A stretch of DNA of 64,000 nt, taken from the IMG/VR virus record IMGVR_UViG_3300045988_177049, positions 32,001 through 96,000 of that record; one strand, given 5' to 3'. The notes beneath the pieces were generated by a model. The model was not told the DNA's origin, did no database searches, and was given only the letters and a program-made list of their open reading frames with translations. Made by a program: the position numbers and the translations under genes. This document shows positions 25,372-44,100 of this stretch, one piece after another. Each line of letters opens with the position of its first letter. The first letter of the stretch is position 1. Origin of the DNA: a virus.

Positions 25372-25388
25372 CCGCACCTATCACACAA

Positions 25389-25432
25389 AAACAATACCCC
25401 GAGCACGGTCATGTGCCCGGGGTATTGTTTTT
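25389..25432. terminator. bidirectional hairpin between convergent genes
   Basis: aacaataccccgagcac-ggtcat-gtgcccggggtattgtt followed by ttttg. Confidence 0.55.
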
Positions 25433-25443
25433 GCCGTATGACT

Positions 25444-25782
25444 CTATTCGTCTGCATCCTCACCGTGATCATCCGATGCGGTGAGCGAACGATTCAGTGT
25501 CAGTGACGCCGAAAACTTCAAAACGTCATAATCAGGCACTCGGCCCGAGCCTGACTTCGTAAACTGCACAGCATGACCATGCTTATGCAACCGATAAAAG
25601 CGCCCGAAACCTGTCAGCATGACAGAGCCACCTGATCGAACGGTTTCAATAATCTCGTCAATGAGAGCGCCGTACACAGCTCGTACCGTCGCTATATCGA
25701 CGTGCGTCCGATGAGAGACGCGATGCAAGAGCTTCGTCTTTGTCAGGCGACCATCCTCTCGATTCCTATGTGTCGAAACCAT
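25444..25782 (-). CDS. HU/IHF-family nucleoid DNA-binding protein
   Basis: LTGFGRFY... and a beta-arm-like segment (GRVPDYDVLKFSAS) in HU order. ~110 aa with an acidic tail. Confidence 0.55.
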   Translation of the reverse strand: MVSTHRNREDGRLTKTKLLHRVSHRTHVDIATVRAVYGALIDEIIETVRSGGSVMLTGFGRFYRLHKHGHAVQFTKSGSGRVPDYDVLKFSASLTLNRSLTASDDHGEDADE

Positions 25783-26290: not shown

Positions 26291-27952
26291 TTAACCGAGT
26301 GACGGCTCATCACCATCCTCTCGTTTAAATTGATCGGACTCACCCATCTCGAACCCATCGTCAACATCATTGAGTTCGAAATCAGTCTCAGCCGTGAATG
26401 CCGACGTCTCATGCTCGTTGTACTCCTGGTTGTCACGAGCACGGTTGTACGCATGACGACGGCGTTCCTTATCGCTCCTCATCCGCTCCGTGTGTGCATC
26501 TGCATGAGCGTTATCATGCCCTGGCGACTCGCGTGGATCAGAGTAGAACTCACCCCGCTGCCACCTGTTGTAGGTTTCCTCGGGGCTTGCGGCGAAATCC
26601 CGCATCTCCGACCTCCACTGCGAACCATACTGTTGTGCCCAGTGGCGTTCGATATCAGGATGCGCCTTCGCGACCAATTCCATTGCATGGACGAACGACG
26701 TCGAATAGACATCACGCTGGAGATCTCGACCAAAACCGTCAAACTCCATGGCTTCAAGCCCACGCTGAGCGCGACGAATCTTTTCACCCATTTGACCTGG
26801 GATCGCTTGGGTGTCGAGAGCCTTGTCTCGAACAAACCATGCCGAGCCATACGCCATCAACGTCTCATTAAGATCGACAAGGTTACCGTTCAAAGCAGCA
26901 CGTTCCATCTCACGAGCCATAGTCACGCTGAGCGACATCTCATGCTGCATATCCGACTGCGGGGGTCGCACGGTAAAGGCTCCACTGATAACAGACTCGC
27001 CCGCACGTGTCGACCACTTGCCCGACCATGTACGACCCAGCTCACCTGTTCGCGGATCAATCTGCTCGGTCATATCCATATCGACCTCGCCATGGGCCGT
27101 CTCGACAAAGCGATAGGCCCACTCAGGCTCATACGCCATACGCTGACCGACGAACATGCGACTAAGCGCACTCACGCGGTCTACATCCAACCCATCGAGC
27201 CGAACATCGTCCCAGAAACGCTCCATGAGGCGGTCATAGTTCTCTTGCACCTCAGCTGGATCGGCCCCAGGAGCGCGCATTTGCTCAAACGCTGCTTCAC
27301 TCAGGCCAATATGGGTCAGCGCAGCACTCATCTCGTTAAACGGAAGACGGTCGCCTCGCTCACTCGCCTCGATACGCTCCAAGCGACGCTTGAGCGACCA
27401 CGGCAGTTCCCCGCCGTGCTTCTCCTTATGCTCTTGGATGTCGCGGTTCACCTGCTCACGCTGGTGTTTCCGCCTGGCATTAGCCATGTCTTCAATCGCC
27501 ATACGAGCATCGCGCGTGAACGACCCTACCTGCTGACGAAAGTTCGGCGACAATAGCCACATCGTCACGCCCATACCGAGTGACTCAGCAACAGCTGACA
27601 TCGATACGCCGTCTTTGAGAGGCACCAAGGCGCTGAGCACCATCATGGACGCATACGCCTTGTGCTTACCTTTCAGATCGTTGGCGCGAGAGGCGAGATC
27701 GGCCTTGCGCCTCTCCCCTTTCAGATTCACTTGCTTCAACGCGTGTAAATACCCATCAGCGTGGCTACGCATCTCACGGCGAAGCTGTTGTCCCCAGTCC
27801 AGACGTGGAACACCTTGAACAGGGGTAGGCTCAGGCTCCGGCTCAATCACCGGATCAATGACGATCGTCTCCGTCACGTTCTCGTCAACTGCTGGCTTGC
27901 GAGGTTCTCCGCCATAGCGGGGTGCTGGAAGCTCACGGGGTGGCCGACTCAT
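26291..27952 (-). CDS. hypothetical large protein with FEL/GFEM motifs near its acidic C-terminus
   Basis: 553-aa ORF. The C-terminal region reads ...TDFELNDVDDGFEMGESD.... The opposite-strand ORF 26330..27556 is judged a shadow. Confidence 0.45.
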   Translation of the reverse strand: MSRPPRELPAPRYGGEPRKPAVDENVTETIVIDPVIEPEPEPTPVQGVPRLDWGQQLRREMRSHADGYLHALKQVNLKGERRKADLASRANDLKGKHKAYASMMVLSALVPLKDGVSMSAVAESLGMGVTMWLLSPNFRQQVGSFTRDARMAIEDMANARRKHQREQVNRDIQEHKEKHGGELPWSLKRRLERIEASERGDRLPFNEMSAALTHIGLSEAAFEQMRAPGADPAEVQENYDRLMERFWDDVRLDGLDVDRVSALSRMFVGQRMAYEPEWAYRFVETAHGEVDMDMTEQIDPRTGELGRTWSGKWSTRAGESVISGAFTVRPPQSDMQHEMSLSVTMAREMERAALNGNLVDLNETLMAYGSAWFVRDKALDTQAIPGQMGEKIRRAQRGLEAMEFDGFGRDLQRDVYSTSFVHAMELVAKAHPDIERHWAQQYGSQWRSEMRDFAASPEETYNRWQRGEFYSDPRESPGHDNAHADAHTERMRSDKERRRHAYNRARDNQEYNEHETSAFTAETDFELNDVDDGFEMGESDQFKREDGDEPSLG

Positions 27953-27966: not shown

Positions 27967-29130
27967 CTACAGCTCGAAACTCGCCTCGTCCCGACGCGCC
28001 TGCTGTGGAGCAGGAGCACCCATGCGACGAGTAGTCGAAGGAACACGCGGAGCAGAGCCAACCTTTATGCTGCTCCCTGGCAGTGCAGCCTGAATCGTTC
28101 CTGAAGTCTTCTGAGACTCAGGTGACGGAGCAAGAGGTCGGCCATCTACATCGCGACCCATTGACGCCATCCATTGCTTGGCAACGTCACCCACACGCAC
28201 AGGCTGACCTGGGCCGCGCTGAGCACGAACGCTTGCCGCTGGCACTGAAGCCTGGGCAGGCTGAGAACTCACATTTTCATGCTGGCTCTGCTGCATCTGA
28301 GCCATGTTCTGACGATAATATGCGCGTGCATTATTCAGATCATGGAGCTGCGCATAATCTTGCACCATCGTGTCTTTGCCATAAGGCCGAACATAGTCAT
28401 GTTCAATCTTACTGATCTCCGCCATGGCTTCATCATCGATGAGGATCCCGCTCCAGGCAGCTTCCATAGCAGCGCCATAGAGCTTGTCGCCCTGATCGTT
28501 TACGCACGGCTCTAACCATCCCGACCGCGTATAGTCGGCTTCATAGTACTGAATCTTTTCGCCAGTACGGATAGCTCCATCACGAAGCAAAGCATTAACA
28601 TGTTCATCCCTCTGTGGCTCGTTCTTATTGATCACAGTCCTGACCTTATCGGCCAATGATCCTGTCCATTCGTGGGGATCAAGACCGTAGTACTGCTTAA
28701 TTTCAGCCTCTGTAGGCTGAGGGAATCGCATATCGAGCCTGAGATCAGCGAGCTTTGCATCATCGACCTGATGAACCGCATAATACGTACGACCAAGAGA
28801 CTCGGCACCAACAGGAAGGACATACTGATCATCGGCATCTTGAATAGCGATCATGGTTGGATCATCAATGATGACACCACCCCATGTCGCCTGGGAGATC
28901 GCATCGCGCAACTCGTTATCCACACGACCTTCATACTCGTCAAGCTCCATTTCCCGCTCAAAGGCTTTCACGCCATCTCGCAACAGAGCATTCGCATATA
29001 CGTCTCGATCCGGCATGTCTTTACCGACAATCGCTGCCATAGTGCCATCGAGCGTGCTGGACCACTCGTATGGTTCAAGACCATAACGCTGCTTGATCTC
29101 ATCGTTCGTGAGATCTCGATTCATCAACAT
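27967..29130 (-). CDS. tandem-repeat protein (two ~135-aa modules) with C-terminal ...ASFEL tail
   Basis: Internal repeats IKQRYGLEPYEWSST...NALLRDG... and IKQYYGLDPHEWTGS...NALLRDG.... Paralogous to the next gene. Confidence 0.5.
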   Translation of the reverse strand: MLMNRDLTNDEIKQRYGLEPYEWSSTLDGTMAAIVGKDMPDRDVYANALLRDGVKAFEREMELDEYEGRVDNELRDAISQATWGGVIIDDPTMIAIQDADDQYVLPVGAESLGRTYYAVHQVDDAKLADLRLDMRFPQPTEAEIKQYYGLDPHEWTGSLADKVRTVINKNEPQRDEHVNALLRDGAIRTGEKIQYYEADYTRSGWLEPCVNDQGDKLYGAAMEAAWSGILIDDEAMAEISKIEHDYVRPYGKDTMVQDYAQLHDLNNARAYYRQNMAQMQQSQHENVSSQPAQASVPAASVRAQRGPGQPVRVGDVAKQWMASMGRDVDGRPLAPSPESQKTSGTIQAALPGSSIKVGSAPRVPSTTRRMGAPAPQQARRDEASFEL

Positions 29131-29311: not shown

Positions 29312-30544
29312 TTACAGTTCAAAACCGCCATCGGCTTCATACGAATCCGACCTCTGTGGCGCTAACGTGTGAGACACAGACGTTGACCGTACACGAGGTG
29401 CCTGACGACCAACAGTGATACTGCTACCAGGAAGCACTGCCGCAATAGACCCCTGACGGGAACCTTGAGATGGGGTGGACGAAGATACAGGTTGACCATC
29501 AGTGTCACGCCCCATTGAGCGCGTCCATTGCTCCAAAGCATTAGCGAGCCGAACCTGCTCTTTACCATGAGCACTTCCACCTGTGATTACCGAAAAATCA
29601 GCAATTTCCTGAGCCGCTTGTCTCGATAACCCAGGCTTCTTCTCAGCATGAGACGAAACAAGCGTTGGTGCAGTCTCACGATAATACTTTCGTGCATCAT
29701 TAAGTTCACGCAACTCGTCATATTGGCGCGTCAACAATTCAGGAGCATAGGGAGTCACGTAGTTATGCTCCACCCTCTTGATAGCGTTCATCGTTTCAGC
29801 ATTGATCAAAATACCATTCTCTACGGCGTCCTTGATTGAATCACGCAGATCATAACCATAGACACAAGCATCCGCTCCCATATCATTATATGTTGCGTTC
29901 TCGGCCTCAAGCTTCTCCATACCAATCTCGAAAACAGCCACCTGATCACGCAAGAAACAGTTGACCTGATGTTCCTTATTCGGTGCGTCCTTATTGATAA
30001 TCGTCCTCACATCGACTGATGTACCCGTCCATTCATCAGGTTCAAGACCATAAATCGTCTCGATATACCAATCTGAGGGCCTTTGGTACTGCTCACGCAA
30101 AGACTGACGGTAATAAATCTGCAAGGGCTTATTGTAATAAACCTCTAAACAAGAACTGAGTAGCGATTCCCCATCACTATGAACCACGTATTCATTATCC
30201 ACATCATTGATGAACAAATAAGTTTCATCGTTGATAGAAACACCATTTTCGACAACGCGAGACACAGCATCCCGGAATTCAACGTCATCAGTGAATTCTT
30301 CGCCTGGTTCCAACGGAGTGTGCATACTTCGCTTAAAAAAGTCTGCACTGTCATACAGCAACGCATTGACCTGATCTTCTCGTGCGAGGTCATTCTTATT
30401 GATAATCGCTATCACTCGATCAGAAAGCGAACCAGCCCACTCATGAGCCTCAAGACCATAACGACTCTTGACCTCATCCTGTGGAACTGTTGCCATCCAC
30501 TCTGACATAACTGACACAGACATGATACATATTTCCTCTCTCAA
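29312..30544 (-). CDS. tandem-repeat protein paralog with C-terminal ...DGGFEL tail
   Basis: Repeats VKSRYGLEAHEWAGS...NALLYDS and IYGLEPDEWTGT...NCFLRDQ. The C-terminal region is collinear with the 27967..29130 product. Confidence 0.5.
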   Translation of the reverse strand: MREEICIMSVSVMSEWMATVPQDEVKSRYGLEAHEWAGSLSDRVIAIINKNDLAREDQVNALLYDSADFFKRSMHTPLEPGEEFTDDVEFRDAVSRVVENGVSINDETYLFINDVDNEYVVHSDGESLLSSCLEVYYNKPLQIYYRQSLREQYQRPSDWYIETIYGLEPDEWTGTSVDVRTIINKDAPNKEHQVNCFLRDQVAVFEIGMEKLEAENATYNDMGADACVYGYDLRDSIKDAVENGILINAETMNAIKRVEHNYVTPYAPELLTRQYDELRELNDARKYYRETAPTLVSSHAEKKPGLSRQAAQEIADFSVITGGSAHGKEQVRLANALEQWTRSMGRDTDGQPVSSSTPSQGSRQGSIAAVLPGSSITVGRQAPRVRSTSVSHTLAPQRSDSYEADGGFEL

Positions 30545-30667: not shown

Positions 30668-33600
30668 TCACAGCTCGAAGCCATCGTCCTCACTCTCGAC
30701 AGCAACAGGCGCTGGCACCCGGTACTGAGCTGTCGTACTTCTGCTCACATGTGCCGTGCCCGTCTTCGAGCGAACAGGAACAGCCCATGACGTCGACTTG
30801 CGTCGTCCGATGGTTTCCTCTACCTCAACGCGAGCCACAGTGTCGTCCATCGCGATGACAGGAGCCTCGACTTGCGTCTCCACATCAGCCTGGAGCACCT
30901 CTCGCACGCGAGCAGGAGCAAAGCTCTCGTTCCACTTTCCTTCGAACAAACCGGCTCGCTCATGAGCCAACGTCTGCATCGTCGTGAAATCCCCACCGTA
31001 CGCCAGGCGATCCATCGGTGAGGCCAACTTTTCGATGACCTTCTCATCTTCCAAGTTGAGCATGATGCCGTTGCTATCACTGAGAGCCGTGGCAACCTTC
31101 TCGATGTTCTCAGCGTTCACGGTAACGCCCAAACCGTCGTCACCATAGAACCGAGAGAACGCCTCAACCCACTGCTCCTTCGTCGCTTGAACCGGCTTGT
31201 GATCAGCATCCAGAACAGTGTTCCACACGCCATCGTTTCCCTGAGCGATCATCTGTCCGCGCCACAAACTTCGAGCAGGCCCCATGAGCAGCTCATAACG
31301 ATGACGTGCATCTACCGGATCATGCTTGGCCTGCAAAATGCTCTGGGTCACCGGGTAGGTCAACTCCAAAACAGCTTTCAGTTCCTCGTTACGCAGCGCT
31401 CGAACGCCGCGCTGAGAGAAGGTTCCAGCAACCCCTGTACCAAACGATTTCACAGCCGTTGCGTACATGGTACCCTTCTGATCATCGCGCGTGACCTGAG
31501 TGGTCGTCAGATCCACATGTGTCTCAGGGTCATATCCGATGTACTTGGCGTAATCAAGCATCTTCTTGGGCGAACCCTTTGCTCCAGTCTCGATACATGC
31601 CTTCTCAACAGAAGCCATGTGCTCGTGAACCGACCCAAAGGAAAGCACAGCTTCACCATACTGATGACGCAGTGCATCGTGATACATCCGTGATGCAGCA
31701 GCGCTCACCTCACGGCTCGTCTCCAAGAACCGCTCACGACTAGACTCACCTTCGACGAAATCGTAGTATGCGTTGTTTGCCATCTGGTGAACCTCAGCCA
31801 TATCTTCCGCATAAAGCGAGTCATAGTGCTGAGACACCTTCACGTCCAGCGCATCATGCATCGCCAGAGGGTAGCAACCCTCGTCATCCATGCCTTGACC
31901 CAAATCAAGGAGATTCGCCTCAACACTCAGCCTCTCCATGGCTTGCTCGTGAGCAGCCCCGTGACCCAGGTTGACGACTGCCACCGAGTCACCATCAAAG
32001 TCGCCATCGAAACACTTGACCATGTTCGGATTCACGCTCACACCCGTGAGACGCTCGTCAATGCTCACTCGCATGTAACGAACGCCCGCATCACGGAGCA
32101 CGGGATCACGCCAGATCAAAGCGTAGTCACCATCACGTAAGCGCAGTTTTTTCGCCAGCTCTGGACCAACACCAACTTGATCAATATCAAGCCTGGGGTC
32201 CCCTGTCCACACAGCGGTTGCCGAGCGTGGCAAACGAGAAGCCATCAAGCCTTCCTTGACGACGTTATGTTTACCCGTAAAACGGCGGCGCATGATGTCC
32301 TGGGCAATACCGTCGTAAGCCGTCTGTGCGCGGTGCATAGCCTCAGCCATCGTTTGACGAGCATCGGCCAAGTCCTTACCCGTCAGCTCACCCGAGGCAG
32401 CGCGGTCAGCCGCGTGCTTGTAACGCAGCGCCCACTCACGGATCGTCAAATAGCGATACGTGTAGTCATGGACCGTTGACGACCCATCATCCAGGTCTTG
32501 ACCCGAGCGCAAGTGCGAACTCAGCACCGGCACACGCCACGTGGTATCCGTTGCGTGTAGGGTGCGCTCCCCCGTTGGCATCGTCAATGGGAATGGAATC
32601 TCCATATCACCACCAGCGTCACCAATGAGCGCAGCAAAATCACTCCGAACCTTGCGCACGTCAAACGACCCGCGTTCGGTCACAGGAACCTCACCCATCT
32701 CGATGAGACGGCGCGCACCACCAACAGCAAGATCGTCATGGCCCTCACGCAGCGTCCCATCGGGTTCGATGTCAAGACCGCACACCAGAGCCATCTCACG
32801 AAGCTGAGCGAGAGCTTGCAGATTACCACCGTAGATCTGCTCCAGCACCTTGTCGCATCCCTGAGACTGCAACGCCCAAGCAAGCTGAGACGAGGCTTTA
32901 CGTCCCTGACCAGCACGAATAGCAGCGTCATCGTATGCAGCAGTCTTTGCATCAACCGTCATATGGGTACCAATGAAGGACACCTGACCGATACCGTTTT
33001 CAACAACCTCGCCGTTTGGCAGGTACAACGGAGCGGTACTCTGCATCGCTTCACGAGCGCTACCACCGTTGAAACGAGACACCGCGCTAAAGGGTGCCAT
33101 CACGACGTCCAGATCCGGGTTTTGCCTAAACAGATCCATCATGTCAGTCGATCCATACAGATCTTCGATCTCCGAAGACGTCAATGAGGCATCACGGTCA
33201 ACAATGAGTGAAATGACACCCTTGTTGCCGTGCATGTCGGAAATCTTGTCGCCGACAATGAGATCACGCATCTCGCCATCGGTTCCACGAACGCGATATG
33301 TACGCGCGAAATCAGCCGAAACAACGATGGAGTCTTCCATCGTCCATCCACCAGCCGTCATAAACGCCGTGCCCACAGGCTTCGTCACAGACGAGGCATT
33401 CATGAGATTCGATGTTGTCATCTGTTGACGATCGAAAGGATCATAGCTCATGAACTCAGCTTGTTTCGTCAGCATGAGCGGAGCACGATCACCCTTGTCT
33501 GAGGGAACAATCGACCCATCGACGTTCACCTGAGCACCAGAAACCAGATAACGAGTCACGCCTTGGTTGACACCGCTCGATGTCATGATCGGATCAAAGT

Positions 33601-36121
33601 AGCCATCGGCTTCCTCACTGAGCAACGACATATTACGACCGCCCGTGAGCACCCACGGATCCATCGTCGTGTCGTTGGCGGGATCGCCGCTAAAACCCTG
33701 TTCCCGTGCGCGAGATGCACGGAAATCCGCATCAATGGTTGATCCATCACGCAGTGCATTCGGATAGCGCACGCGGCGCGCTTCGGTGGCAAGAATTGCA
33801 TCGAGAATCTCTCGATCCATACCCTCTTCAAGGGCACGCTCATAGTGATCTGCTCGATGGCGCGTATCAGTCAGCCTACGATACACACCGTTAAGGGAGG
33901 CAGGCTCACCGACGCGAGACCGGCCTGTGAGCACGTCAGCTTGAACCCGATAGCGAATCGCATCACTCATCTGCTGTTCGTAACCGATCAGCCGAGTGCG
34001 CTCTTCGAGAGACTTCTTTTCTCCGGGTTTTTGACTGACGACGCGCGCCTCAAAGCCTGGCACGATCATGAGATCGTTACCGGAGTTGAAACGAGTGATG
34101 ATCTCTCCATTCTCACCGCGAGCGAAGATCTGTCCGATCGTTCCGCTCACAGGCTCTTCTCGACCTGTTTGGGAACGCATGATTGAGCCGGTCCACTCCA
34201 CGACACCGTTTGCATCGACGCGGATCGATCCAGGAGTAACCGCGCACGATTCAAGCGTGTCTGACACGACTTGAAGCATCGATGTGGTGAACTCATCGTC
34301 CACAACGTCCATTGACAACGCCGTGGACTCGTCGAAAGTGATCAATCGATCCCTAAATGCGTTGGAATAGAAAGATTCTCCAACGATCTTTTCCTTCGGC
34401 AAACGCGCGGTACGCATTGCAGCCACAAGATCATCGTTGTTACGCCACTGACCGTATTCACTGGTCATGTAACGAGCAGTACGCACGGGATCAAAGACAA
34501 ACTCATCCGACTCAATCGGTGCATCCACACCGATTTGAGTATCGAGTAGATCACGCAGGTGCGCACGAACGCGCTCTTCTGGACTTCCCGTGTAAGCCAC
34601 AGAACCGGCCAACATGTCGTGAACACCAGACAGATCGCTGTCTTGGTCCATCTCATCGAGCAACCCTGTTGCTTCGGCGTACTCAGACCTAGTTGCATCA
34701 GGCTTGAGCAATGTGGTCTCTGCTCCGCGCAGAACGTCCCAATACGCGCGCCCAACGGCTGCAAGATCAGGATCGCCAGACAACACAGGAACATACGTCC
34801 CCTCGCGTGCAGCGTCTTCATGCTCGCTGAGCTGACGGATCAAACCGTCAACATCGAGCTGCTGCTCCACATTGATGCGAGCACTACGAACAGCATCGGT
34901 GATAAACGTCGATGCCTGGGTTCGACCTTCGGGCGTATCAACGAAGAACCGAGACGAGGCAGAACGCTCCTTCATCTGACGACGGATGACCACCTGCTCA
35001 CCGTTTGCTCCCGGCATGTCCTTATACGCACTCGTGAGCGTGTCTGTGGACAAATACGACTCTTGAAGCGTCTTATTCTTGCTCTGACGCTGACCAACGT
35101 GGCCGACAAGACCTTTACCGTCCTTGCGCTCCACGGGGCGTCCCAAGGCGACGCGCACAAGGTCGCACACCTCATCAACAGTGGGTGTGTACGCCACCTG
35201 CTTGTTATCTCGACGAGCAGTCGTGGAGAAGTACAGCGTTGCACCGTTGTCATAGACACGACCCACCCACTGCTCTTTGTCTCGGGTATCGGTCAGACGC
35301 ACCGTCATATTCGTTCCCGTGAGTCGAGCACGAATCTGACCGGGACGCAAGTCCTTTTCAATCGTGTAGGGAATACCTTCTTCGGCCAACATATCGAGCA
35401 CAGCTCGGGAGCGAGCAAGTGCGTCGGTACTCATGAACTGACGGGCGTTATAGCGTCCCGTCTCAGGGTTACGTGCACCATCAAGTACCCACTGACGAAC
35501 ATCGTTGTACTCAGCCGTCGTCATGCGACCCATGAGTTCAGTCAGGCCCGAGATATCATCGAGGCTGAGTGCCCGGCCTGCTTCTTTCGCATCGCCGTCT
35601 TCGTTCAGACGATAGAGCTTGAGTTCCGAGGATGTGACCTTTTCCAGACTACTCGGCTTGCCATCGGCAAATGCAGCAATGTCATCATCGAGAATATACA
35701 AAATCGATGAACCAGCTTGCTTGACGCTTCGGCGGGTTCCCCACCGAGGATCATAAGGAGAGATCGGCAAACGAGGTCCAGCAGCTCCTGTAGATCCGCT
35801 CAGACCAATCGTCGCCGTAAAGTCTTTGTACAACGCCTTGTAGCCCTTACTTGATGTATCGGCAGGCTGGAACAAGGCTTTGTATCCTGGGACGTTCTCA
35901 CTCATGACGCTTTGAATAGCGTCGAGTGCTTCGGGGACGCCTAAGTCCCCATCGTTAAACGAACGTCCATTTTCATTAAGCTTGGCTTCCATGAGATCTC
36001 GCAAGTGCCGACCCTGTGAAACCAGGATCGGAGAACCAATCAACTCACTCGTTCGATTGATCGTACGGGCGATCATGTACTCATACATGTACCGACGCAA
36101 ACCAGCATTACGCGTTTGCAT
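30668..36121 (-). CDS. single-chain two-barrel (multisubunit-type, beta/beta-prime-like fused) RNA polymerase homolog, 1817 aa, C-terminal ...DDGFEL tail
   Basis: At aa 964-968 (nt ~33218-33232) IVGDKISDMHGNKGVIS matches the RNAP beta DPBB signature GDKxxxRHGNKGVxS. At aa 1374-1378 (nt 31988-32002) PVLRDAGVRYMRVSIDERLTGVSVNPNMVKCFDGDFDGDSVAVVNL matches the beta-prime catalytic loop ...NADFDGD. Confidence 0.7.
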   Translation of the reverse strand: MQTRNAGLRRYMYEYMIARTINRTSELIGSPILVSQGRHLRDLMEAKLNENGRSFNDGDLGVPEALDAIQSVMSENVPGYKALFQPADTSSKGYKALYKDFTATIGLSGSTGAAGPRLPISPYDPRWGTRRSVKQAGSSILYILDDDIAAFADGKPSSLEKVTSSELKLYRLNEDGDAKEAGRALSLDDISGLTELMGRMTTAEYNDVRQWVLDGARNPETGRYNARQFMSTDALARSRAVLDMLAEEGIPYTIEKDLRPGQIRARLTGTNMTVRLTDTRDKEQWVGRVYDNGATLYFSTTARRDNKQVAYTPTVDEVCDLVRVALGRPVERKDGKGLVGHVGQRQSKNKTLQESYLSTDTLTSAYKDMPGANGEQVVIRRQMKERSASSRFFVDTPEGRTQASTFITDAVRSARINVEQQLDVDGLIRQLSEHEDAAREGTYVPVLSGDPDLAAVGRAYWDVLRGAETTLLKPDATRSEYAEATGLLDEMDQDSDLSGVHDMLAGSVAYTGSPEERVRAHLRDLLDTQIGVDAPIESDEFVFDPVRTARYMTSEYGQWRNNDDLVAAMRTARLPKEKIVGESFYSNAFRDRLITFDESTALSMDVVDDEFTTSMLQVVSDTLESCAVTPGSIRVDANGVVEWTGSIMRSQTGREEPVSGTIGQIFARGENGEIITRFNSGNDLMIVPGFEARVVSQKPGEKKSLEERTRLIGYEQQMSDAIRYRVQADVLTGRSRVGEPASLNGVYRRLTDTRHRADHYERALEEGMDREILDAILATEARRVRYPNALRDGSTIDADFRASRAREQGFSGDPANDTTMDPWVLTGGRNMSLLSEEADGYFDPIMTSSGVNQGVTRYLVSGAQVNVDGSIVPSDKGDRAPLMLTKQAEFMSYDPFDRQQMTTSNLMNASSVTKPVGTAFMTAGGWTMEDSIVVSADFARTYRVRGTDGEMRDLIVGDKISDMHGNKGVISLIVDRDASLTSSEIEDLYGSTDMMDLFRQNPDLDVVMAPFSAVSRFNGGSAREAMQSTAPLYLPNGEVVENGIGQVSFIGTHMTVDAKTAAYDDAAIRAGQGRKASSQLAWALQSQGCDKVLEQIYGGNLQALAQLREMALVCGLDIEPDGTLREGHDDLAVGGARRLIEMGEVPVTERGSFDVRKVRSDFAALIGDAGGDMEIPFPLTMPTGERTLHATDTTWRVPVLSSHLRSGQDLDDGSSTVHDYTYRYLTIREWALRYKHAADRAASGELTGKDLADARQTMAEAMHRAQTAYDGIAQDIMRRRFTGKHNVVKEGLMASRLPRSATAVWTGDPRLDIDQVGVGPELAKKLRLRDGDYALIWRDPVLRDAGVRYMRVSIDERLTGVSVNPNMVKCFDGDFDGDSVAVVNLGHGAAHEQAMERLSVEANLLDLGQGMDDEGCYPLAMHDALDVKVSQHYDSLYAEDMAEVHQMANNAYYDFVEGESSRERFLETSREVSAAASRMYHDALRHQYGEAVLSFGSVHEHMASVEKACIETGAKGSPKKMLDYAKYIGYDPETHVDLTTTQVTRDDQKGTMYATAVKSFGTGVAGTFSQRGVRALRNEELKAVLELTYPVTQSILQAKHDPVDARHRYELLMGPARSLWRGQMIAQGNDGVWNTVLDADHKPVQATKEQWVEAFSRFYGDDGLGVTVNAENIEKVATALSDSNGIMLNLEDEKVIEKLASPMDRLAYGGDFTTMQTLAHERAGLFEGKWNESFAPARVREVLQADVETQVEAPVIAMDDTVARVEVEETIGRRKSTSWAVPVRSKTGTAHVSRSTTAQYRVPAPVAVESEDDGFEL

Positions 36122-36357
36122 AACATTCTCCTTTTCAGGTTCGGCCCAGTCGGACCGATCGGGTGATTACCCTTACATATTACCTGAAAAACCCACGCTT
36201 TTCAACGGAAACACTGTCGAAACGCTTTTGTATCGAGTACGATAAATACGTAGATGTCATATCGCAAACCCCGGTGTCACGGACAAACATTTTCCGTGTG
36301 TAACATCCGACAAGCCATATGACCATCTCTCAACACACAACAGAAAGGACACTCACC

Positions 36358-37749
36358 ATGTCACATGAACAAGTAAAAGGTACTCTGCTCACCGTTGGAG
36401 CAACAGCGGCATCAACCGCCCTTCTCGTCGGCGGTTTTATCGGATACAACCACATACAAGCCATGTCCTCAGCCGATGAACAAGCCGTCATCTTTAACGA
36501 GACGCACTCCGCCAGCGGAGCCACAGACGCTCTCACCGGAACAACCGGAGAATTCAGTGATCATTGCACCGTTATGCGCGAAGGTTTGCAATTCACTGTA
36601 GGCCCCATGAATTATACGACCTCAAACACGTCATTGCGCGGCACACCTGTTCCACCCACGCGATCTACAACCGGCTTTGATTGGCAATGGGTAAACAAGG
36701 ATCGCGTATCACCCACCGGAGTACGCGCCGATGTTCCCGATGTCGTCGGAACGACCCCAGAGAACGTCTCCACTCCAGAAGGTCGCACACAGGCGAACCT
36801 CAATGCGTGGTATCAGCAAATCTGGGACAGCAACTTCCGTGTTGGAAACGTTGAGATCGGTTATCACCCAGGCGGTCAACCTAACCCCGCCATTCCGCAG
36901 GTTCTCGCAGCCCACTGCGAGTGGGATGTCAAAGTTTCGAGTAATGCTGACACAAATAGTGAAGGTTCTACTCTTAATGACGACGTAACACTTGGCGCTG
37001 TTCCCGTTTGGGACCTCGCAGAAGGGGAAACTGCCCCGTGGCTCACGGTAGACGGCAAAAAAGCCCAAGTAACGGTTCACGGTCGCGCCTACCACACGGC
37101 AGACAAGCCCATTAAAGACAATGACATTCCGGCAAACGCTCAGCTCATCGGGGAAACAACCCTTGACTTCACTGCCTCGGGAACTAAGACCGCAACCATC
37201 AACAAGCCATCCAACCTTAACGGAGGTTACGTCACATGGGTGTGGAGCGTTGATAAGAATAATCAGCCCGGCGATTGGGGTAAGTACCTCATGAACGACA
37301 ATGTTTCTGACGGGTGGGCCGCAGAAAACGAGGTCGTTGAACTCCCCAAGAACCCTGAGCCTACGCCAAGCGTAGCTGCTCCCACCGTTGAGCCGAGTGC
37401 AGCGCCGACACCTAGTGCCACGGAACCTACCCCTACACCAAGCATTACCACTCCTACATCTGAACCTACGCCAAACACGACACCTTCCACTCCGGTTTCA
37501 AAAACCACGCCTTCGGCAACCCCGACTCCAGATGGGAATGAGACCCCTGCACCAACACCGAGTGATCCGACTGGTTCAACCCCGTCAGCACCGGGTACTC
37601 CGGGTACTGTCACCCCACAAACGTCACACGAGACACCATATGCAAGTCTTGCTCACACTGGTTCACCAGCGCTCCCGCTGATTGAATTAGGTGTCATCTC
37701 GTTGGCTGGTGGTTTGACTCTGGCTCTCAGGAAGCGTAACGTGGGTTAA
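36358..37749 (+). CDS. LAXTG-anchored cell-wall surface protein (sortase substrate)
   Basis: N-terminal signal/TM, a Pro/Thr/Ser-rich stalk, and C-terminal LAHTG + hydrophobic segment + RKRNVG. gaaagga RBS upstream of the ATG at 36358. Confidence 0.65.
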   Translation: MSHEQVKGTLLTVGATAASTALLVGGFIGYNHIQAMSSADEQAVIFNETHSASGATDALTGTTGEFSDHCTVMREGLQFTVGPMNYTTSNTSLRGTPVPPTRSTTGFDWQWVNKDRVSPTGVRADVPDVVGTTPENVSTPEGRTQANLNAWYQQIWDSNFRVGNVEIGYHPGGQPNPAIPQVLAAHCEWDVKVSSNADTNSEGSTLNDDVTLGAVPVWDLAEGETAPWLTVDGKKAQVTVHGRAYHTADKPIKDNDIPANAQLIGETTLDFTASGTKTATINKPSNLNGGYVTWVWSVDKNNQPGDWGKYLMNDNVSDGWAAENEVVELPKNPEPTPSVAAPTVEPSAAPTPSATEPTPTPSITTPTSEPTPNTTPSTPVSKTTPSATPTPDGNETPAPTPSDPTGSTPSAPGTPGTVTPQTSHETPYASLAHTGSPALPLIELGVISLAGGLTLALRKRNVG

Positions 37750-37770
37750 TACCTCACACAGGGCGCGAGT

Positions 37771-37818
37771 AGCGGCGGTTCGTATGACACATGTTGTGCG
37801 AGCCGCCGCTTCCTTTTG
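37771..37818 (+). terminator. hairpin terminator
   Basis: agcggcggttcg-(16 nt)-cgagccgccgct then tccttttg. Confidence 0.5.
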
Positions 37819-37842
37819 CACCACACCGACAAAGGAGTAACC

Positions 37843-38364
37843 ATGGCTTCCAATACCGTTCTGGCCGAACAACACCACTACAAACGACACATGCCCTCGG
37901 TTGCGACAGTCGTCAAGTACTGGCGTACACATCCCCAACTATGGATGAAAGGCGTAGTTATTGGTTGGAACATTCCGTTTTGTTTCGCGTGCGGCTGGAT
38001 CCCGCCTGTGAAGATTCACAACGGTTTCAAATGGAAGGGCGCGAGCCGTTTTCTTGAACGTGCTCACCTGCAAAATCATTGCGTGCGCGGAAACGATAAA
38101 CCATCGAACATCGTCCTTCTATGCCCACTATGCCACAGTGCAATGCCACGGTTTCAATCACGCAAAGAAGCGCTGCACTGGGTATCCAAACAGTACTCTT
38201 ACCGTATGCGAACCACCAGCACAGCGCTCCATGATGCCTCTTGGCAGCTCTACACCAACACGCACCCGTGTTGTGATCAAGACGATATCCGCGAGCTGTA
38301 CAGACTGTTTTTGATCAGCGTCATGCTTCAGGCTCAAGAGGTGGCACACCTAATGCATCCATAA
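37843..38364 (+). CDS. HNH endonuclease
   Basis: ERAHLQNHCVRGNDKPSNIVLLCPLCH is an HNH core. aaaggag RBS upstream of the ATG at 37843. Confidence 0.55.
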   Translation: MASNTVLAEQHHYKRHMPSVATVVKYWRTHPQLWMKGVVIGWNIPFCFACGWIPPVKIHNGFKWKGASRFLERAHLQNHCVRGNDKPSNIVLLCPLCHSAMPRFQSRKEALHWVSKQYSYRMRTTSTALHDASWQLYTNTHPCCDQDDIRELYRLFLISVMLQAQEVAHLMHP

Positions 38365-38593
38365 GCGCATCACACGCATCATTGAGGGAAAGAACGTAGT
38401 CCTTTTCAACGACCATGAAATCAAAAAACTCATCCAAAAACGCTGTAACACGTTTTTCTAAAGTTTTTGACTCGGATACATCTCCAATCAATTCTTCCAA
38501 TCTTTCAGCAGTCGTAATGAGATTATCTCGCTTATCCAAAAAATCCGAAACGACCGTTTCCAAATTTGCCATTTCCAACACCTTTCCTTTCAT
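38321..38593 (-). CDS. hypothetical small acidic protein
   Basis: ORF in a low-GC patch. Confidence 0.3.
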   Translation of the reverse strand: MKGKVLEMANLETVVSDFLDKRDNLITTAERLEELIGDVSESKTLEKRVTAFLDEFFDFMVVEKDYVLSLNDACDALMDALGVPPLEPEA

Positions 38594-38628
38594 ACATCAA
38601 TGGATACTTTTACGTAAATAACAATCAA

Positions 38629-39183
38629 TCACAACGATTGATAAATCGCCTTCCGTAACTCATCATTTCCATATTCATAAAGCAGCCACTCCGGTTGAGC
38701 CAAGCAAACATACCGGCGACCGCACTCACGATCACGGTCATGATCACGCAAGTACCACATATTGTGCTTGACCATAGCCAATTCTTCCTTCGTGAATTGA
38801 GCCAGGCTCGCTTCAACTTCTTTTGCACCCATCCAATCATCAAGTATGCTAAACGAACCTTCTCGATCCTCATTCCAGAGATTCCATTCAGTTGCAGTAT
38901 TTGGATCGAGCTTCTTGTAATATAAACCGCCATCAGAAAGGCTCTCAAAGACGGCAAGAACGGGCATCATGCCGCTCAGCGCACTAAGTCTATGACTTTT
39001 GCACTCTAAACCTGCAACGTCCCATAACGATTTCGCCAAATCGAACGGACTAGTTGCTGACATAATACTTCTGCACAATAGCGTCTTTGCTGTAGCTAAA
39101 CGATCGACGTCATTCATATTTTGTCCTTTCGCATAGAGATTCTGCTCGTAACTCAGTCTAACACAATGATACGTATAACGCAT
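38629..39183 (-). CDS. hypothetical protein
   Basis: ORF in a low-GC patch. No motif recognised. Confidence 0.35.
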   Translation of the reverse strand: MRYTYHCVRLSYEQNLYAKGQNMNDVDRLATAKTLLCRSIMSATSPFDLAKSLWDVAGLECKSHRLSALSGMMPVLAVFESLSDGGLYYKKLDPNTATEWNLWNEDREGSFSILDDWMGAKEVEASLAQFTKEELAMVKHNMWYLRDHDRDRECGRRYVCLAQPEWLLYEYGNDELRKAIYQSL

Positions 39184-39235
39184 CTATGTTACAATGGATA
39201 ATATAAACCACTTCTAGTAGAAAGCCGCGCACACC

Positions 39236-41020
39236 ATGCCACGAAAACCTTCCCAAACCCTTGAACAATTCAGCTCCGCCCTGGCTGATCAGCTTGTTGA
39301 TCAATCCCTACGATCCATTGCTCGTGGATCAGACACAAGAGTCCAATGGCGCTGTCCCATTGACCCTCGCCATATATGGTGGGCAAGCCCAATGAACCGC
39401 ACTAATGCGAAAAATCCAACCGGATGCAGCGTATGTAACGGCAAGACTGTCATCCCCGGTGTCAATGACGTCGCCACAACCCATCCCGACGTGGCTGCTC
39501 TCATGGTTGATCAAAGCCTCACCACGAAGCTCACCGGCTCTTCTAATAAGAGAGTCGAGTTCTGGTGTGGTAATCCCGCACACAACCACTGGGTTGCACC
39601 GCTCAGTAACGTCGCGCGCCAAGGAACGCGCTGCCCTCAGTGCTCAGGTCGTAAACCCGTTTCAGGCCAGAGCGATCTAGCGACCACTCATCCCGACCTA
39701 GTTTCCGAACTTGTTGATCAGTCTCTCGCTACCACCCTCAAAGCAGGGTCAAACACCTCTGTGCTCTGGCAATGCTCGGTGAATCCCGATCACACGTGGA
39801 AGGCAACGCCATACTCACGTACAACTAAAAAGACCGGGTGCCCGTATTGCTCAGGTAGGATCATCGTCCCTGGTGTCAATGATCTTGCAACCACACACCC
39901 CGATCTGGCTATACAGCTCGTGGATCAGTCCTTAGCGACAGCCACGAGCAAGGGTGGGACTACACCTGTGCTTTGGCAGTGCCAAGTCAACCCGGAGCAC
40001 ACATGGCTCGCAGCCCCAAGTAACCGTGTGAAGCCCTCGGGATGCCCCATGTGCTACAGGCTTCATACCAACCCATCTCAAACACTTTTAACCGAGATGA
40101 TCCGCTCTCTTGTTCCCACGAGCACAGTCCTCGGTGACGACCATACGATTCTCCCCTCGGGTAAAGAACTTGATATCGTCGTGCCTGACCACCGTCTCGC
40201 CATCGAGTTCAACGGTGTGTTCTGGCACTCTGAGGCCGCATCTGTCGAAACGCACTGCAAGCCCCATCCTCACGGCTATCACGCTGAGAAAACACGTGAA
40301 GCACGCGAGCAGGGCTACCAACTCGTTCACGTGTGGGAGGATGACTGGGTGCATCGACACGAGCTTGTTATGCGCGCTCTTGCTCATAAGCTACACGCGA
40401 CAGACCGCCTGCCGGAGATTCTGCCAGACATCAACCCGCTGGCCTATGAGCGTCTCTACGCGCGCAGCCTCACAGTGAAAACTGTTCCTGGTGATGTTGC
40501 AAGACGTTTCTGGCAAGACAACCATCTCCAAGGCCCGGTGAACTGCTCTGTCAACATCGGTCTCTATGATCAAAACCATGTTTTACGCGCTCTGCTCGGT
40601 GTGGGGCGCAAGAACCATGGTTCACGTGTCTCGCTGCCAGATGGAACCTGGGATATCCAGCGCTACGCAACACTAGGCATTGTCGTTGGTGGCTTCACCC
40701 GTCTCCTTGCCCACGCTGAGACACTTCTGCCCGTCCACGCGTGGACGTCATGGAGCGACAACGACATCTCTGATGGTGGGATGTACCAAGCAGCAGGCTT
40801 CACCCCGGATAAGCGTCAAGGAGCGAGCTACAGCTACGTCGGACGCACAACCAGGTGGGAACGTGTTCATCGCTCCACGTACACGAAGCAGCGTTTCATT
40901 GACGATCCTGATCTCGTCTACGAGCCTGGTCAAACTGAGCACGAGGCGGCTTTAGCTAATAGGCTCTACCGCATCTACGACGCAGGTAAGACCCGGTGGA
41001 TCAAACACGTGGAACGCTAG
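39236..41020 (+). CDS. zinc-ribbon-repeat protein with C-terminal Vsr/DUF559-like PD-(D/E)xK endonuclease domain
   Basis: At least five repeats of the form W(R/Q)C...H.W.A.P..R....GC..C.G. with ATTHPD linkers (treble-clef Zn ribbons). The C-terminus KELDIVVPDHRLAIEFNGVFWHSE resembles the Vsr/DUF559 core. Confidence 0.5.
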   Translation: MPRKPSQTLEQFSSALADQLVDQSLRSIARGSDTRVQWRCPIDPRHIWWASPMNRTNAKNPTGCSVCNGKTVIPGVNDVATTHPDVAALMVDQSLTTKLTGSSNKRVEFWCGNPAHNHWVAPLSNVARQGTRCPQCSGRKPVSGQSDLATTHPDLVSELVDQSLATTLKAGSNTSVLWQCSVNPDHTWKATPYSRTTKKTGCPYCSGRIIVPGVNDLATTHPDLAIQLVDQSLATATSKGGTTPVLWQCQVNPEHTWLAAPSNRVKPSGCPMCYRLHTNPSQTLLTEMIRSLVPTSTVLGDDHTILPSGKELDIVVPDHRLAIEFNGVFWHSEAASVETHCKPHPHGYHAEKTREAREQGYQLVHVWEDDWVHRHELVMRALAHKLHATDRLPEILPDINPLAYERLYARSLTVKTVPGDVARRFWQDNHLQGPVNCSVNIGLYDQNHVLRALLGVGRKNHGSRVSLPDGTWDIQRYATLGIVVGGFTRLLAHAETLLPVHAWTSWSDNDISDGGMYQAAGFTPDKRQGASYSYVGRTTRWERVHRSTYTKQRFIDDPDLVYEPGQTEHEAALANRLYRIYDAGKTRWIKHVER

Positions 41021-41123: not shown

Positions 41124-44100
41124 TCACTCGTTCTCTCGGCGCTCATGGATACGAGCCATAGCTCGATCAAAAGCACCGTTACCGAGATCTTCCCACGATT
41201 CACAGCTGTTCAAGAACTTATAGAACGCGTCGTGAACCTGCCACGAGCCAAGCTCAGCAGCATTCATGATCGACTCATCGTCACCATACACACCTTGGGT
41301 GGCATCAGACGATGCATCCTGGATCGCGCGCAGCTCAGAGCTTGACAAGCCCTGGCTGATGTACACCCGACCTTCAAGCGAGCACAGTGACCCGTTCGCG
41401 TCCACTCTAAAGAACCGGGCGTCTCCTGCAAGTTCACGCTTGGTCTCACGGTACGCAGCGATGATCTCATCATCAAGACTATGGATCACACTTCCGTTGT
41501 CACCGATAAAATCAGCACGGCTGATCTGACCTTCGGCATACCGCTTCTTCTTCCGATCATCCATAATCTTCTGCTGCACGGCCATTTCTTGCTGAACGTC
41601 CTCATTGATCACGTCATCTTGACTAAAGACATCATAACCCGCTCCCACGAAAGCACGATACGCGTCCTCACTCATCATGTCGTATTCTTCGGACTCATCA
41701 CTTTGACCTTGGCGTTCTGCCTCAATGGATGCAATGAGATCCATGACCTCAGCCGAGTACACGTCTGGGTCCAAAATCGAGATGCCGTAATCATCCAGGT
41801 TATAAGCATCTTGGTACAGATTCATTGCCTCAGCAGCGTTTGCAGCCTGTTCAATACGCTTGTCCAGCATCTTGACAAAGTCAGGCTGGTTCAAGCGCAC
41901 ATCGAACTCAAGTGCAGACGAAAGGGTTGGAATCGTCTGGAGCGAATACGTGTGTCCTGGATGCTGAATCGTGTCTTTGAACAAACGCCACGACATCGGC
42001 AGGATCTCTGCATTGCGGTTCCAGATCGGTGAGATACCAGCGGAGAAGATGATTGAATTACGCTCCGGCAAAAATGCCAAGTCATTGTACCCAATCACAG
42101 ACTCTTCCTTCGCACTGATCGTGTACGAGACCTTGCCCTCAACATTCAAACCTTCGATGAGACGCTCGGTATCCTGAGTCACCGTCTTCGAGTCTCGCAC
42201 CGCGCGGTGGCGCGTACCTGACATCTTCGCCAATGTCTCAATCATCGTATCGTCCGTCGATTTCAGAAACACAATATTGGCAACGTTTCCTTGGATGATC
42301 TTATCTACCGAGTCGCCATAGACGTCTCTAGCCTGCTGCAACGTTTGAAGAATCAACGTAAATTGCTGCTCCTGGCCCAAACCAATCGACAACATGGTTT
42401 CGAACCCGGCGATACCGTGGCCCTCAGACTGCAAGTTACCCAACTCGTCAAGCATGAAGCGCGTCTTGTACAACGGCTTCTGGCTCGACTTGGTCATGTA
42501 AGACTTATCAAAGTTCAAGTCCACCAATTGCTTCACGAGGATCAGCACGAGTTTCGCGTACTTCATCAAGTGCGGTGGCGTCACCAGGAACACAGCCTTG
42601 GGTTGTTCCGAGTACCGCACCGACGACAAGATAATGGCAGGCACGCTCTCTCGCACCGTCTGAGGCTTCCCAGCCTTATCGAGAAGACGAGTCGTGGGGT
42701 AGTTCAGATGACCTGGAACAAGTTTTCCATCCGGCCCCTTCACCATCTCCACGAGAACACCATTACGGATGATCTTGCTTCCCGTCACAGGGTCTTTGAC
42801 GAACTTACGACCATTCAGGGACAACTGGTACCCCTTCGTGAACTGAAAATAGAACGTCTTCAAGAGCACGCCGGTATGCGGATTAAACAAGCGCAGTCGC
42901 AAGTATGCGACATCGTGAGGGAACTTCCCATCGAAGTAGTAACGCGCCCAACCTTCTCGCACAACTGTGTCTTCGTGCTCAAAGTCTTTCCCGAGGTTGT
43001 GTGTCAACTCGGGATCATCAAAGGCATCCCACTTCGCCTGAGCACCAATGAGACCGTCTCGCTTAGTGAAGTTTTGTGCGAAACGGACACCGAAACGACG
43101 AGGGAACGACAACCCGCCCAAGTCAGTGTTCTGGGAGGGCGTACCAGAAGTCAGTGTCGAGATCGTCGGATCAGTAAAGAAGCTCATTGCGGTGATCGCA
43201 ATACCGTAGACAGACGCAAGCATCTTCTCAGCTCCCGCCATTGCACGAAGCGCATTGTTGGCGTTGGCAATGAGCGTGCGCATCGTCGACTGAGGTAGAG
43301 CCTCGGTCGCGTTAAAGAACAAGGTGAGCAGGTCCAGCTCAGGCTTGTCTTCCCACAAGAACTCAATACGCTCGGCTTGTGCCTGGTCGTGATTGATCGC
43401 TTCCTGACGTTCGTCCTCGTCCTGAATCTGGTCGTAATACCCACCCTTGAGACGCTCGTTCATCTGAGTCATGGGCGACTTGCGCTTCTTCGAGGTGAGC
43501 TGCACAAAAAGCTGGTAGCAGTTATAGAGCGTGACTTTACCCCACATGGCATCGAGCTTTTGTTCCAAAACCTTTTGATCCATGCCATGTCGCATCGCAT
43601 ACTGACGCAACTGGTGCTCTTCTTCCAGGTAGTAGTCGATCAAGCCGTATGCTGCACGCTTGAACGCGTTGTTTGCAGCGTTCGGCCACACCGGGTCTTC
43701 TGCACCATCGACTGGGAAGAACACGTCTGCGATGTTTTCAACGTAGAGAGCACACTTGGTCTGGTCACCTTCGCGTGCTGCCTCAGCAGCCATCCCAAGC
43801 GGATTGTAAATGTCCGTTTTCATGGCATTGATGAGGTTAAACTGCACAACCTGGAACCCGCGCATGGTGGCACGGACGTAATTTTTCACCAAAAGTTCGC
43901 CCTTGGGGTCATTGATGACCATGTTGTCCGGGCGCTTTTGGCGCATCCAGATATCGAGCATCGGTTCAATGTAGGTCTGACCTTTACCAGCACGAGTCAT
44001 AGCAAGGATCATGGTGTTGGCAGGGGCTGTATCAACGTAATACACACCAGCCGGGCGCTGAGGCTCATACGTAGGCAGCTCCCACTCCCCATTCACCAGA

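Follow-up and report, generated by a model that had tools for sequence, protein, structure and literature searches.

The corynebacterial protein NCgl1702 was reportedly flagged in 2003 by Iyer, Koonin and Aravind as a distant β::β′ fusion. In reviews, single-chain two-barrel RNA polymerases (RNAPs) are placed in phages and fungal killer plasmids only; NCgl1702 itself was termed enigmatic by Ruprich-Robert and Thuriaux (2010, PMC2919709) and is described as an orphan in the CGP3 'prophage' with about 40 recognisable residues (PMC7824862), whereas the relative analyzed here lies in a conserved conjugation operon. It is encoded by an open reading frame (ORF) of 1817 codons at 30668..36121 on the minus strand of a 64,000-nucleotide stretch, hereafter the window, corresponding to positions 32,001 to 96,000 of the IMG/VR virus record IMGVR_UViG_3300045988_177049. 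An initial annotation, made from the sequence alone, had described the product as a single-chain RNAP of two-barrel type in an apparent conjugative element; its family proves to be the NCgl1702-like one, previously noted and already known from computational work.

The ORF is genuine, with an ATG start and a GGAG about 7 nt 5′ of the start codon. Both motifs are located where the initial annotation had placed them, GDKISDMHGNKGVIS at residues 957–971 and VKCFDGDFDGDSVAVVNL at residues 1368–1385, and each is covered by a Pfam domain above its curated cut-off: RNA_pol_Rpb2_6 for the first (27.6 bits vs. 23.4) and RNA_pol_Rpb1_2 for the second (28.0 bits vs. 25.3). PHROGs and NCBIfam add weak local matches to RNAP β and archaeal A′. 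The catalytic segment of the β-type barrel (residues 924–971, 33209..33352, minus strand; Rpb2_6) extends from GGWTMEDSIVVS to GDKISDMHGNKGVIS, and GGWTMEDSIVVS (residues 924–935) is taken to correspond to the '(Y)N(F/Q)EDS' segment of β/Rpb2 that holds Mg-B. The corresponding segment of the β′-type barrel (residues 1337–1378, 31988..32113, minus strand; Rpb1_2) extends from WRDPVLRD to FDGDFDGD. Comparison of 49 homologues sharing 36–87% identity reveals that D930, K959 and K967 on the β side are invariant, as are W1337, R1338, P1340, D1374, D1376 and D1378 on the β′ side, while position 929 is acidic in 48 of the 49 (40 with D, 8 with E), the remaining homologue having Q. All eight residues universal to two-barrel polymerases in the list of Ruprich-Robert and Thuriaux (PMC2919709) are conserved in this set, together with the extra carboxylate. 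The protein therefore appears, as judged from its sequence, to carry a complete and strictly conserved active site with the barrels in β then β′ order in one chain, and the DxDxD loop with its preceding R-x-P, the β lysines and the Mg-B aspartate place it in the two-barrel superfamily. No Toprim, AEP (archaeo-eukaryotic primase) or PrimPol domain was detected in it by Pfam, NCBIfam or PHROG.

In the β-type barrel only 28 residues separate D930 from K959, which makes the absence of a flap insertion (sandwich-barrel hybrid motif, SBHM) directly visible; the equivalent residues of E. coli β (E813/D814 to K1065) are about 250 residues apart. A β barrel free of an SBHM/flap insertion is a feature of the NCgl1702 type (PMC7824862), and the RNAP of this window shares it.

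More than these two short motifs can be recognised, since a profile built from the family aligns with β′ residues ~241–350 of solved RNAPs in the PDB (E 4e-9 to 2e-7), the aligned part opening with the lid ('LPVLPPDLRP'), taking in switch 2 (GKHNVVKEGLMASRLPRSATAVWT) and reaching the NADFDGD loop. The β′-like lid and switch-2 region delimited by this alignment comprises residues ~1196–1305 (LPVLSSHLRSGQDL to GKHNVVKEGLMASRLPRSATAVWT; 32207..32536, minus strand), and the local NCBIfam match to archaeal A′ falls at residues 1258–1327. Around the DFDGD loop the best PDB sequence match is gp96, the virion RNAP of phage P23-45 (8h2m/8h2n, E 7e-6). A putative bridge-helix region is inferred at residues 1513–1601 (31319..31585, minus strand), where TGAKGS is followed by a long helix and then LQAKHD. 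TGAKGS is lined up with the SGARGS that opens the β′ bridge helix in a second hmmsearch stretch of 3.0 bits, not significant alone; A1514, K1515 and G1516 are invariant in the homologues, and a 56-residue helix is predicted in this region (model residues 956–1011).

An AlphaFold2 model of residues 590–1780, computed with 16 homologue fragments, reached a mean pLDDT (predicted local distance difference test) of 83.3 and a pTM (predicted template modelling score) of 0.78. When this model was compared with the PDB by Foldseek, RNAP β′ chains accounted for all of the best 50 matches (best E 3e-11, probability 1.0), and nearly all of these chains belong to solved bacterial complexes; 635 matches had E ≤ 1e-3. 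Structural superposition matched about 510 residues with largest subunits and about 420 with second-largest subunits. Among the former the match scores were 14.3 for human RPA1 (512 residues, 3.7 Å), 13.8 for both archaeal A′ and Pol IV NRPD1, 13.2 for vaccinia rpo147 and 10.8 for M. tuberculosis β′; among the latter they were 9.6 for vaccinia rpo132 (417 residues) and for RPA135, and 9.2 for Xanthomonas β (424 residues). The single-chain phage enzymes scored 12.3 (P23-45 gp96) and 10.7 (crAss-like gp66), QDE-1 and PolD DP2 8.7 each, and isolated or designed double-psi barrels 10–11.6. Because both halves of the model look like the corresponding RNAP subunits, and nearer to cellular-type enzymes than to the QDE-1/crAss branch, the idea that the two motifs belong to unrelated folds finds no support in the prediction, which places both of them within double-psi barrels of RNAP-like architecture. 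Pfam hits to both barrels, the family profile, Foldseek and superposition thus agree with the initial annotation on a single-chain two-barrel RNAP in β then β′ order. Its remark that almost nothing else in the protein is recognisable does not hold, in view of the aligned lid and switch 2, the weakly aligned bridge-helix start and the extent of the superposition.

The N-terminal ~600 residues (34322..36121, minus strand) form a region specific to the family and conserved across it, whose fold is without known match. The N-terminal 640 residues are confidently predicted (pLDDT 84.2) and have no significant counterpart in the PDB (best Foldseek E 0.27). At the other end of the model, pLDDT drops below 50 over the last ~20 residues (1760–1780), which fits a flexible linker ahead of the C-terminal tail described below.

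A word-indexed protein search recovered 96 full-length homologues of 1765–2327 residues, most of them from Actinobacteria (Arthrobacter, Microbacterium, Plantibacter, Cryobacterium, Streptomyces) and all annotated as hypothetical proteins or, in occasional cases, as RNA polymerase. A profile search of 1.84 billion representatives yielded 440 clusters at 50% identity with E ≤ 1e-30, mostly of 1800–2500 residues, and the family is accordingly taken to comprise at least 440 such clusters. A homologue cluster (P0091) with 39% identity over 92% of the query (E 0) holds BAB99168.1 of C. glutamicum ATCC 13032, a protein of 2169 residues. BAB99168 is NCgl1702, and the RNAP of the window belongs to the NCgl1702-like family. 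More distant homologues, with 24–27% identity over the core, occur on plasmids of Staphylococcus and Lactococcus. A tblastn search of 50,697 phage records revealed no full-length relative, the sole match being 70 residues around DFDGD in a P23-45-type virion RNAP. In the searchable literature we found no systematic tie between this family and conjugation operons of the type IV secretion system (T4SS) kind, although the 2003 and 2012 papers of Iyer may have noted one, and no description of its conserved tail.

Analysis of the surrounding genes reveals where such proteins are encoded. One genome per species was scanned for the family; the GDFDGD and HGNKGV patterns were recovered in 103 genomic stretches encoding a relative of the RNAP, of which 77 loci were kept and compared by tblastn of all ORFs of the window. 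These loci come from an oral Actinomyces metagenome-assembled genome (96% identity) and from Streptomyces, Arthrobacter, Kribbella, Nocardiopsis, Promicromonospora, Brevibacterium and others. They share a same-strand order, (MobL)–p183–ClpB-like ATPase–p762–coupling protein–RNAP–p553–HU, in which p553 is found in 75 of the 77 loci, the coupling protein in 74, the ATPase and p762 in 73 each and HU in 66. In the window, where the whole series is on the minus strand, it starts with the MobL-family relaxase (52341..54665; Pfam MobL 2.4e-63; C-terminus SDDIELG) and p183, a protein of 183 residues ending in NDEPEF (51654..52205; within the flank in 34 loci). The ClpB-like double AAA+ ATPase (47753..51526; Pfam AAA_2, AAA, ClpB_D2-small and LAGLIDADG_3/Hint) carries an intein, with Hint and LAGLIDADG at residues ~640–920, and owes to it its length of 1257 residues, its homologues having ~590–630 residues in most related loci. 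It is followed by p762 (45312..47600), a presumed membrane protein of 762 residues with a Gly/Ala/Val/Ile-rich hydrophobic C-terminus and no family match, and by a giant type IV coupling protein of the VirD4/TraG type (41124..45164; 1346 residues; Pfam T4SS-DNA_transf, TraG-D_C and TrwB_AAD_bind). Downstream of the RNAP gene are p553 (26291..27952), its conserved 3′ partner, and, as the last gene of the operon, an HU-type DNA-binding protein (25444..25782; Pfam Bac_DNA_binding 9.7e-10). Thus, the RNAP gene belongs to the core of the DNA-transfer operon in a family of MobL-type conjugative plasmids and integrative and conjugative elements (ICEs) of Actinobacteria, and its placement beside T4SS genes in a conjugative element, already proposed in the initial annotation, is borne out by the coupling protein, the relaxase and the conservation of the operon in the related loci.

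The same association is seen on a plasmid of demonstrated transmissibility and in more remote hosts. On pGKT2 of Gordonia sp. KTR9 the order is mobL, then an AAA ATPase, a hypothetical protein, a T4 coupling protein and the RNAP homologue; this plasmid was transferred experimentally to Gordonia, Rhodococcus and Nocardia, as PMC5640721 reports of Jung et al. (2011). On Staphylococcus SAP020A a coupling protein, a membrane protein and a 709-residue protein precede an RNAP of 1807 residues (Pfam Rpb2_6 2e-16, Rpb1_2 1.6e-10), with topoisomerase III and a lysozyme/CHAP protein further along.

Two features of the operon are specific to this lineage. The start of the RNAP gene lies ~200 bp past the coupling protein gene in most related loci; here the two are separated by a four-gene insertion (36319..41020) missing from most of these loci, with three genes on the plus strand, encoding 476, 182 (weak HNH) and 594 residues, and one of 184 residues on the minus strand (38629–39183). 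The 594-residue protein of the insertion contains four DUF4379 zinc-finger repeats (~207-nt DNA repeats, family D2) and a REase_MTES_1575-like domain. Just 3′ of the RNAP gene, and found only in L001 and L002, the loci of Actinomyces type, are two paralogues of 410 (29312..30544, minus strand; C-terminus DGGFEL) and 387 residues (27967..29130, minus strand; C-terminus EASFEL), each with an internal duplication ~400 nt apart (repeats D1 and D3). Searches of Pfam, NCBIfam and PDB sequences with p553 and the 410-residue protein, and of families and the PDB with the 387-residue paralogue, yielded no match.

The RNAP ends, after its low-confidence linker, with the acidic-aromatic tail ...VESEDDGFEL (30671..30700, minus strand). 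As the initial annotation had noticed, this tail is common to the RNAP and its neighbours, DGFEL being found again as DGGFEL and EASFEL in the next two genes; moreover, p553 has DDGFEM 20 residues before its end, and p367 (54741..55844, minus strand; 367 residues), next to the relaxase gene, ends in EDEEPEF. A tail of this type is kept in most of the 77 RNAP orthologues, where it reads DDDYGMGY, DDYEMGS, DGFEYGL or DDFQP; the corresponding tails are SEDYQPA or DVDFELG in p553 and VEEPAVG/EELAVG in p183, and in none of these loci do the coupling protein, the ATPase or p762 have an acidic-hydrophobic tail. NCgl1702 ends in DGGFEL and the Staphylococcus homologue in NDKGFELEM. The aromatic tail residues of the RNAP and p553 form F-F 4, F-Y 0, Y-F 7 and Y-Y 35 pairs, a co-variation that is suggestive only because the lineages are not independent.

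Conjugation delivers a single strand of DNA, on which priming and expression have to follow. In rolling-circle plasmids and ICEs, priming normally depends on host RNAP that is recruited to a folded single-strand origin. Plasmids of the IncP and IncI groups export primases of their own, TraC1 and Sog (PMC5512222), and the phages N4 and P23-45, as well as crAss-like phages, inject RNAPs and provide a precedent for polymerase delivery. An RNAP encoded by the element, independent of σ and situated beside the coupling protein, fits the same logic by analogy and would favour a broad host range. Our proposal, which we hold tentatively and rate somewhat below an even chance, is that the enzyme synthesises RNA from the DNA of its own element in conjugation and that its tail is a docking or export signal. 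It would polymerise ribonucleotides on this DNA without host σ factors, an independence suggested by the lack of a flap insertion, and would most probably act on the single strand entering the recipient. The RNA could prime synthesis of the complementary strand, provide the first transcription of the element, or both, and would thereby free establishment from the polymerase of the new host. The acidic-aromatic tail, which the relaxase and several of the small proteins of the operon have as well, is most simply understood as a common docking or export signal, to be recognised by either the giant coupling protein or the ClpB-like unfoldase.

The RNAP may then itself travel into the recipient with the DNA. 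Export through the T4SS is plausible, considering the adjacency of the coupling protein gene and the type of tail common with the relaxase, and conceivable from the combination of tail, ClpB-like unfoldase and unusually large coupling protein. The more specific scheme, in which the 200-kDa RNAP is a conjugation substrate bound by its tail to the coupling protein, unfolded by the ClpB-like ATPase and active as a host-independent primase or transcriptase in the recipient, must be called unlikely as it stands.

Several points weigh against the proposal as a whole. We know of no protein of 200 kDa exported by a Gram-positive T4SS; a substrate of this size would be unprecedented and would need unfolding. 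No VirB4 ATPase is encoded within the 64-kb window, which is part of a ~109-kb replicon, and the searchable literature holds no experiment on any member of the RNAP family. The tail could serve partner binding, autoinhibition or mimicry of the tip of single-stranded DNA-binding protein (SSB). The tail counts, which in themselves favour the proposal, are indicative only because the criterion was set post hoc and the loci share ancestry: when a qualifying C-terminus had to carry a net charge ≤ −3 over its last 10 residues, to be free of Lys/Arg over the last 8 and to include a hydrophobic residue among the final 4, 6 of 20 transfer-strand genes, that of the relaxase included, qualified vs. 1 of 33 other genes of the window (Fisher p 0.009), and 88 of 439 vs. 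29 of 655 in the related loci.

In the main alternative, the polymerase would instead reside in the donor, as an element-specific transcriptase like YonO of the Bacillus prophage SPβ, with its own promoters and a subset of element genes (transfer, late or cargo) under its control; it would then decouple these genes from host regulation, and the tail would mediate assembly with operon partners and not export. We consider this possible but rather unlikely. It draws on the fact that YonO, the only characterised bacterial single-chain two-barrel RNAP, transcribes phage genes (PMC5467207), and the absence of a flap fits promoter use without σ by such an enzyme. An HU-type gene accompanies both the RNAP, in 66 of the 77 loci, and yonO (yonN), a hint of common template handling that is compatible with action in the donor as well as in transfer. 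A σ70-like hexamer pair, TTGAAA-17-TAATAT, is found on the minus strand at 36205–36177, ~55 nt 5′ of the RNAP start codon, so that the host could switch the gene on first, and the insertion may in this lineage have given the RNAP gene a host-type promoter of its own; the scan for σ70 promoters and terminators gave nothing above shuffled expectation. Set against a donor transcriptase, without being decisive, are the position of the gene among those for DNA processing and coupling and not with regulators, the absence of the family from the phage records searched, the tail in common with the relaxase, the only protein for which exit from the cell is known, and the lack in the window of any repeated intergenic motif fit as a dedicated promoter, the repeat search having returned only intragenic paralogous repeats and chance-level pairs.

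Activity of another kind is a further alternative, since two-barrel enzymes have changed template and product several times (PMC7281927): the protein could act in replication of the plasmid rather than in its transfer, as a donor primase (replacement-strand or rolling-circle), as an RNA-templated enzyme like QDE-1 or as a DNA polymerase of the kind of archaeal PolD. The window does contain genes for replication and repair (RarA/MgsA-like, SNF2 and UvrD helicases), but the RNAP has elements specific to β′ (lid, switch 2 and the NADFDGD-type loop), and its linkage is with the coupling protein and the relaxase rather than with a replication initiator, and we regard a replication role as improbable. 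Extremely improbable, in our estimation, is a catalytically dead relic or a structural scaffold of the transfer apparatus that has kept polymerase-like folds. The fast divergence of the family outside the motifs and the N-terminal 600 residues without known fold could be taken in this sense, and catalysis is so far a prediction; however, three aspartates, the Arg/Pro pair, two lysines and the Mg-B aspartate are invariant in the 49 homologues down to 36% identity, and the GDFDGD and HGNKGV patterns are retained across the 103 genomic stretches, a conservation not expected without catalysis.

The identical RNAP is encoded on two independent human oral metagenome assemblies of 109,488 and 109,481 bp, and their nearly equal sizes suggest a complete replicon of ~109.5 kb; the 90%-identity cluster of the protein has 571 members, many on contigs of ~100–115 kb. 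The element is probably a complete and common ~109.5-kb plasmid of oral Actinomyces. The GC content of the window is 53%. A lysozyme-type wall hydrolase is encoded at 57992–59887 (minus strand), and this gene, the relaxase and coupling protein genes and the plasmid-borne relatives characterise the RNAP as encoded by a mobile element. No tRNA integration site and no Rfam family was found in the window, and no primase domain in any of its scanned ORFs (the window represents ~60% of the presumed replicon), the latter absence being in favour of the RNA synthesis proposed above. Between the HU gene and the convergent ORF 24670–25371 (plus strand) lies a near-perfect 21-bp hairpin (25386–25433; 95% complementary, 6-nt loop), probably a bidirectional terminator at the end of the transfer operon.

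Elsewhere in the window, a UvrD-like helicase is split into an N-terminal (17596–19539) and a C-terminal ORF (20568–21818), with the ORF of a LAGLIDADG endonuclease of 233 residues (19880–20581) between them, all on the plus strand; the two halves are adjacent in L001 and L002, and the arrangement looks like a second invasion by a homing endonuclease or intein, possibly with a frameshift. A second ClpB-like double AAA+ ATPase of 613 residues (14964–16805, plus strand) has counterparts with 46–49% identity in the distant loci L031 and L077, beside the split helicase, and near it are genes for a MazF/PemK toxin-domain protein (21834–22631) and a non-specific endonuclease (23879–24634). The RarA/MgsA-type AAA+ gene (5245–6582, plus strand) has its counterpart on pGKT2 at 32290–33609, where an SSB gene adjoins it. 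Finally, alpAC is common to pGKT2 and CGP3, the C. glutamicum 'prophage' in which NCgl1702 lies (PMC4446434), and part of CGP3 may therefore derive from a pGKT2-like plasmid.

A large RNAP family thus turns out to be a fixed component of T4SS-type DNA-transfer operons in Actinobacteria, including that of a transmissible catabolic plasmid. Should the enzyme prove to prime or transcribe the DNA that comes in, it would represent a new route by which plasmids become independent of the transcription machinery of the recipient, and a new class of minimal, σ-independent RNAP of use in mechanistic studies and synthetic biology. The conserved tail gives concrete access to the way substrates are recognised in the poorly understood type IV secretion of Gram-positive bacteria.

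Among described proteins the closest is NCgl1702, with which homology is full-length and the order of β and β′ in one chain, the missing flap and the DGGFEL-type C-terminus are in common; NCgl1702 has in addition a Pro/Gln-rich linker of ~250 residues before the tail. YonO (PMC5467207) is likewise a single polypeptide with two double-psi barrels and no σ-binding flap, encoded by a mobile element with an HU-type neighbour, but it has 839 residues and a phage context as opposed to 1817 residues and a conjugative one. In SPβ (20834–23875), HU-type yonN lies immediately 3′ of yonO, and two-barrel RNAPs of mobile elements may generally work with an HU partner. The initial annotation had assigned the protein to the YonO/crAss kind, and this assignment has to be abandoned: hhalign of the family profile with YonO gave a probability of 0.1% (E 0.51) and homology limited to the DxDGD loop, tblastn returned no SPβ match from a phage collection that includes SPβ, and the best structural matches are multisubunit enzymes of cellular or viral origin. 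Moreover, the clade of YonO and the RNA-dependent RNA polymerases of eukaryotes is without the extra Mg-B carboxylate (the fifth, equivalent to Rpb2 E836; PMC2919709), which is kept here at position 929.

An ordinary rpoB/rpoC fusion is rejected as well, the NCBIfam rpoB, rpoC and A′ models giving 12–24 bits, in local matches only, vs. cut-offs of 800–1040, and the flap being absent. Helicobacter RpoBC and Orf6 of the yeast killer plasmid pGKL2 have the same subunit order, and Orf6 is also plasmid-encoded (PMC2919709), but both keep the ~500-residue cellular core, whereas the protein described here is without flap and far below the rpoB/rpoC cut-offs. A phage origin was discarded, no full-length relative being present in the phage collection and no virion genes (capsid or terminase) in the window. 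P23-45 gp96 (8H2M/8H2N, PMC10770324) and gp66 of the crAss-like phage phi14:2 (6VR4) are single-chain two-barrel enzymes too and set a precedent for a polymerase that accompanies DNA; they are phage virion proteins, whereas delivery of the conjugative enzyme is only a hypothesis.

The closest functional analogy is with TraC1 of RP4 and Sog of R64/ColIb-P9, encoded by genes of the transfer region, exported by the T4SS and making RNA primers on the incoming strand (PMC5512222); these are Toprim-fold primases, whose fold is unrelated to that of the RNAP. The 2017 survey of conjugatively delivered proteins (PMC5512222) includes primases and no RNA polymerase, N4-like RNAP modules are known from phages only and never from conjugative elements (PMC5512222), and our literature search found no paper that proposes a transferred transcriptase in conjugation. 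The virion RNAP of N4, whose strategy the initial annotation had invoked, is delivered with the DNA and reads structured single-stranded promoters, but has a T7-like right-hand fold and not two barrels. If the RNAP described here is indeed delivered, it would be for conjugation what the injected RNAPs are for N4, crAss-like phages and P23-45, and would help to explain transfer across genera.

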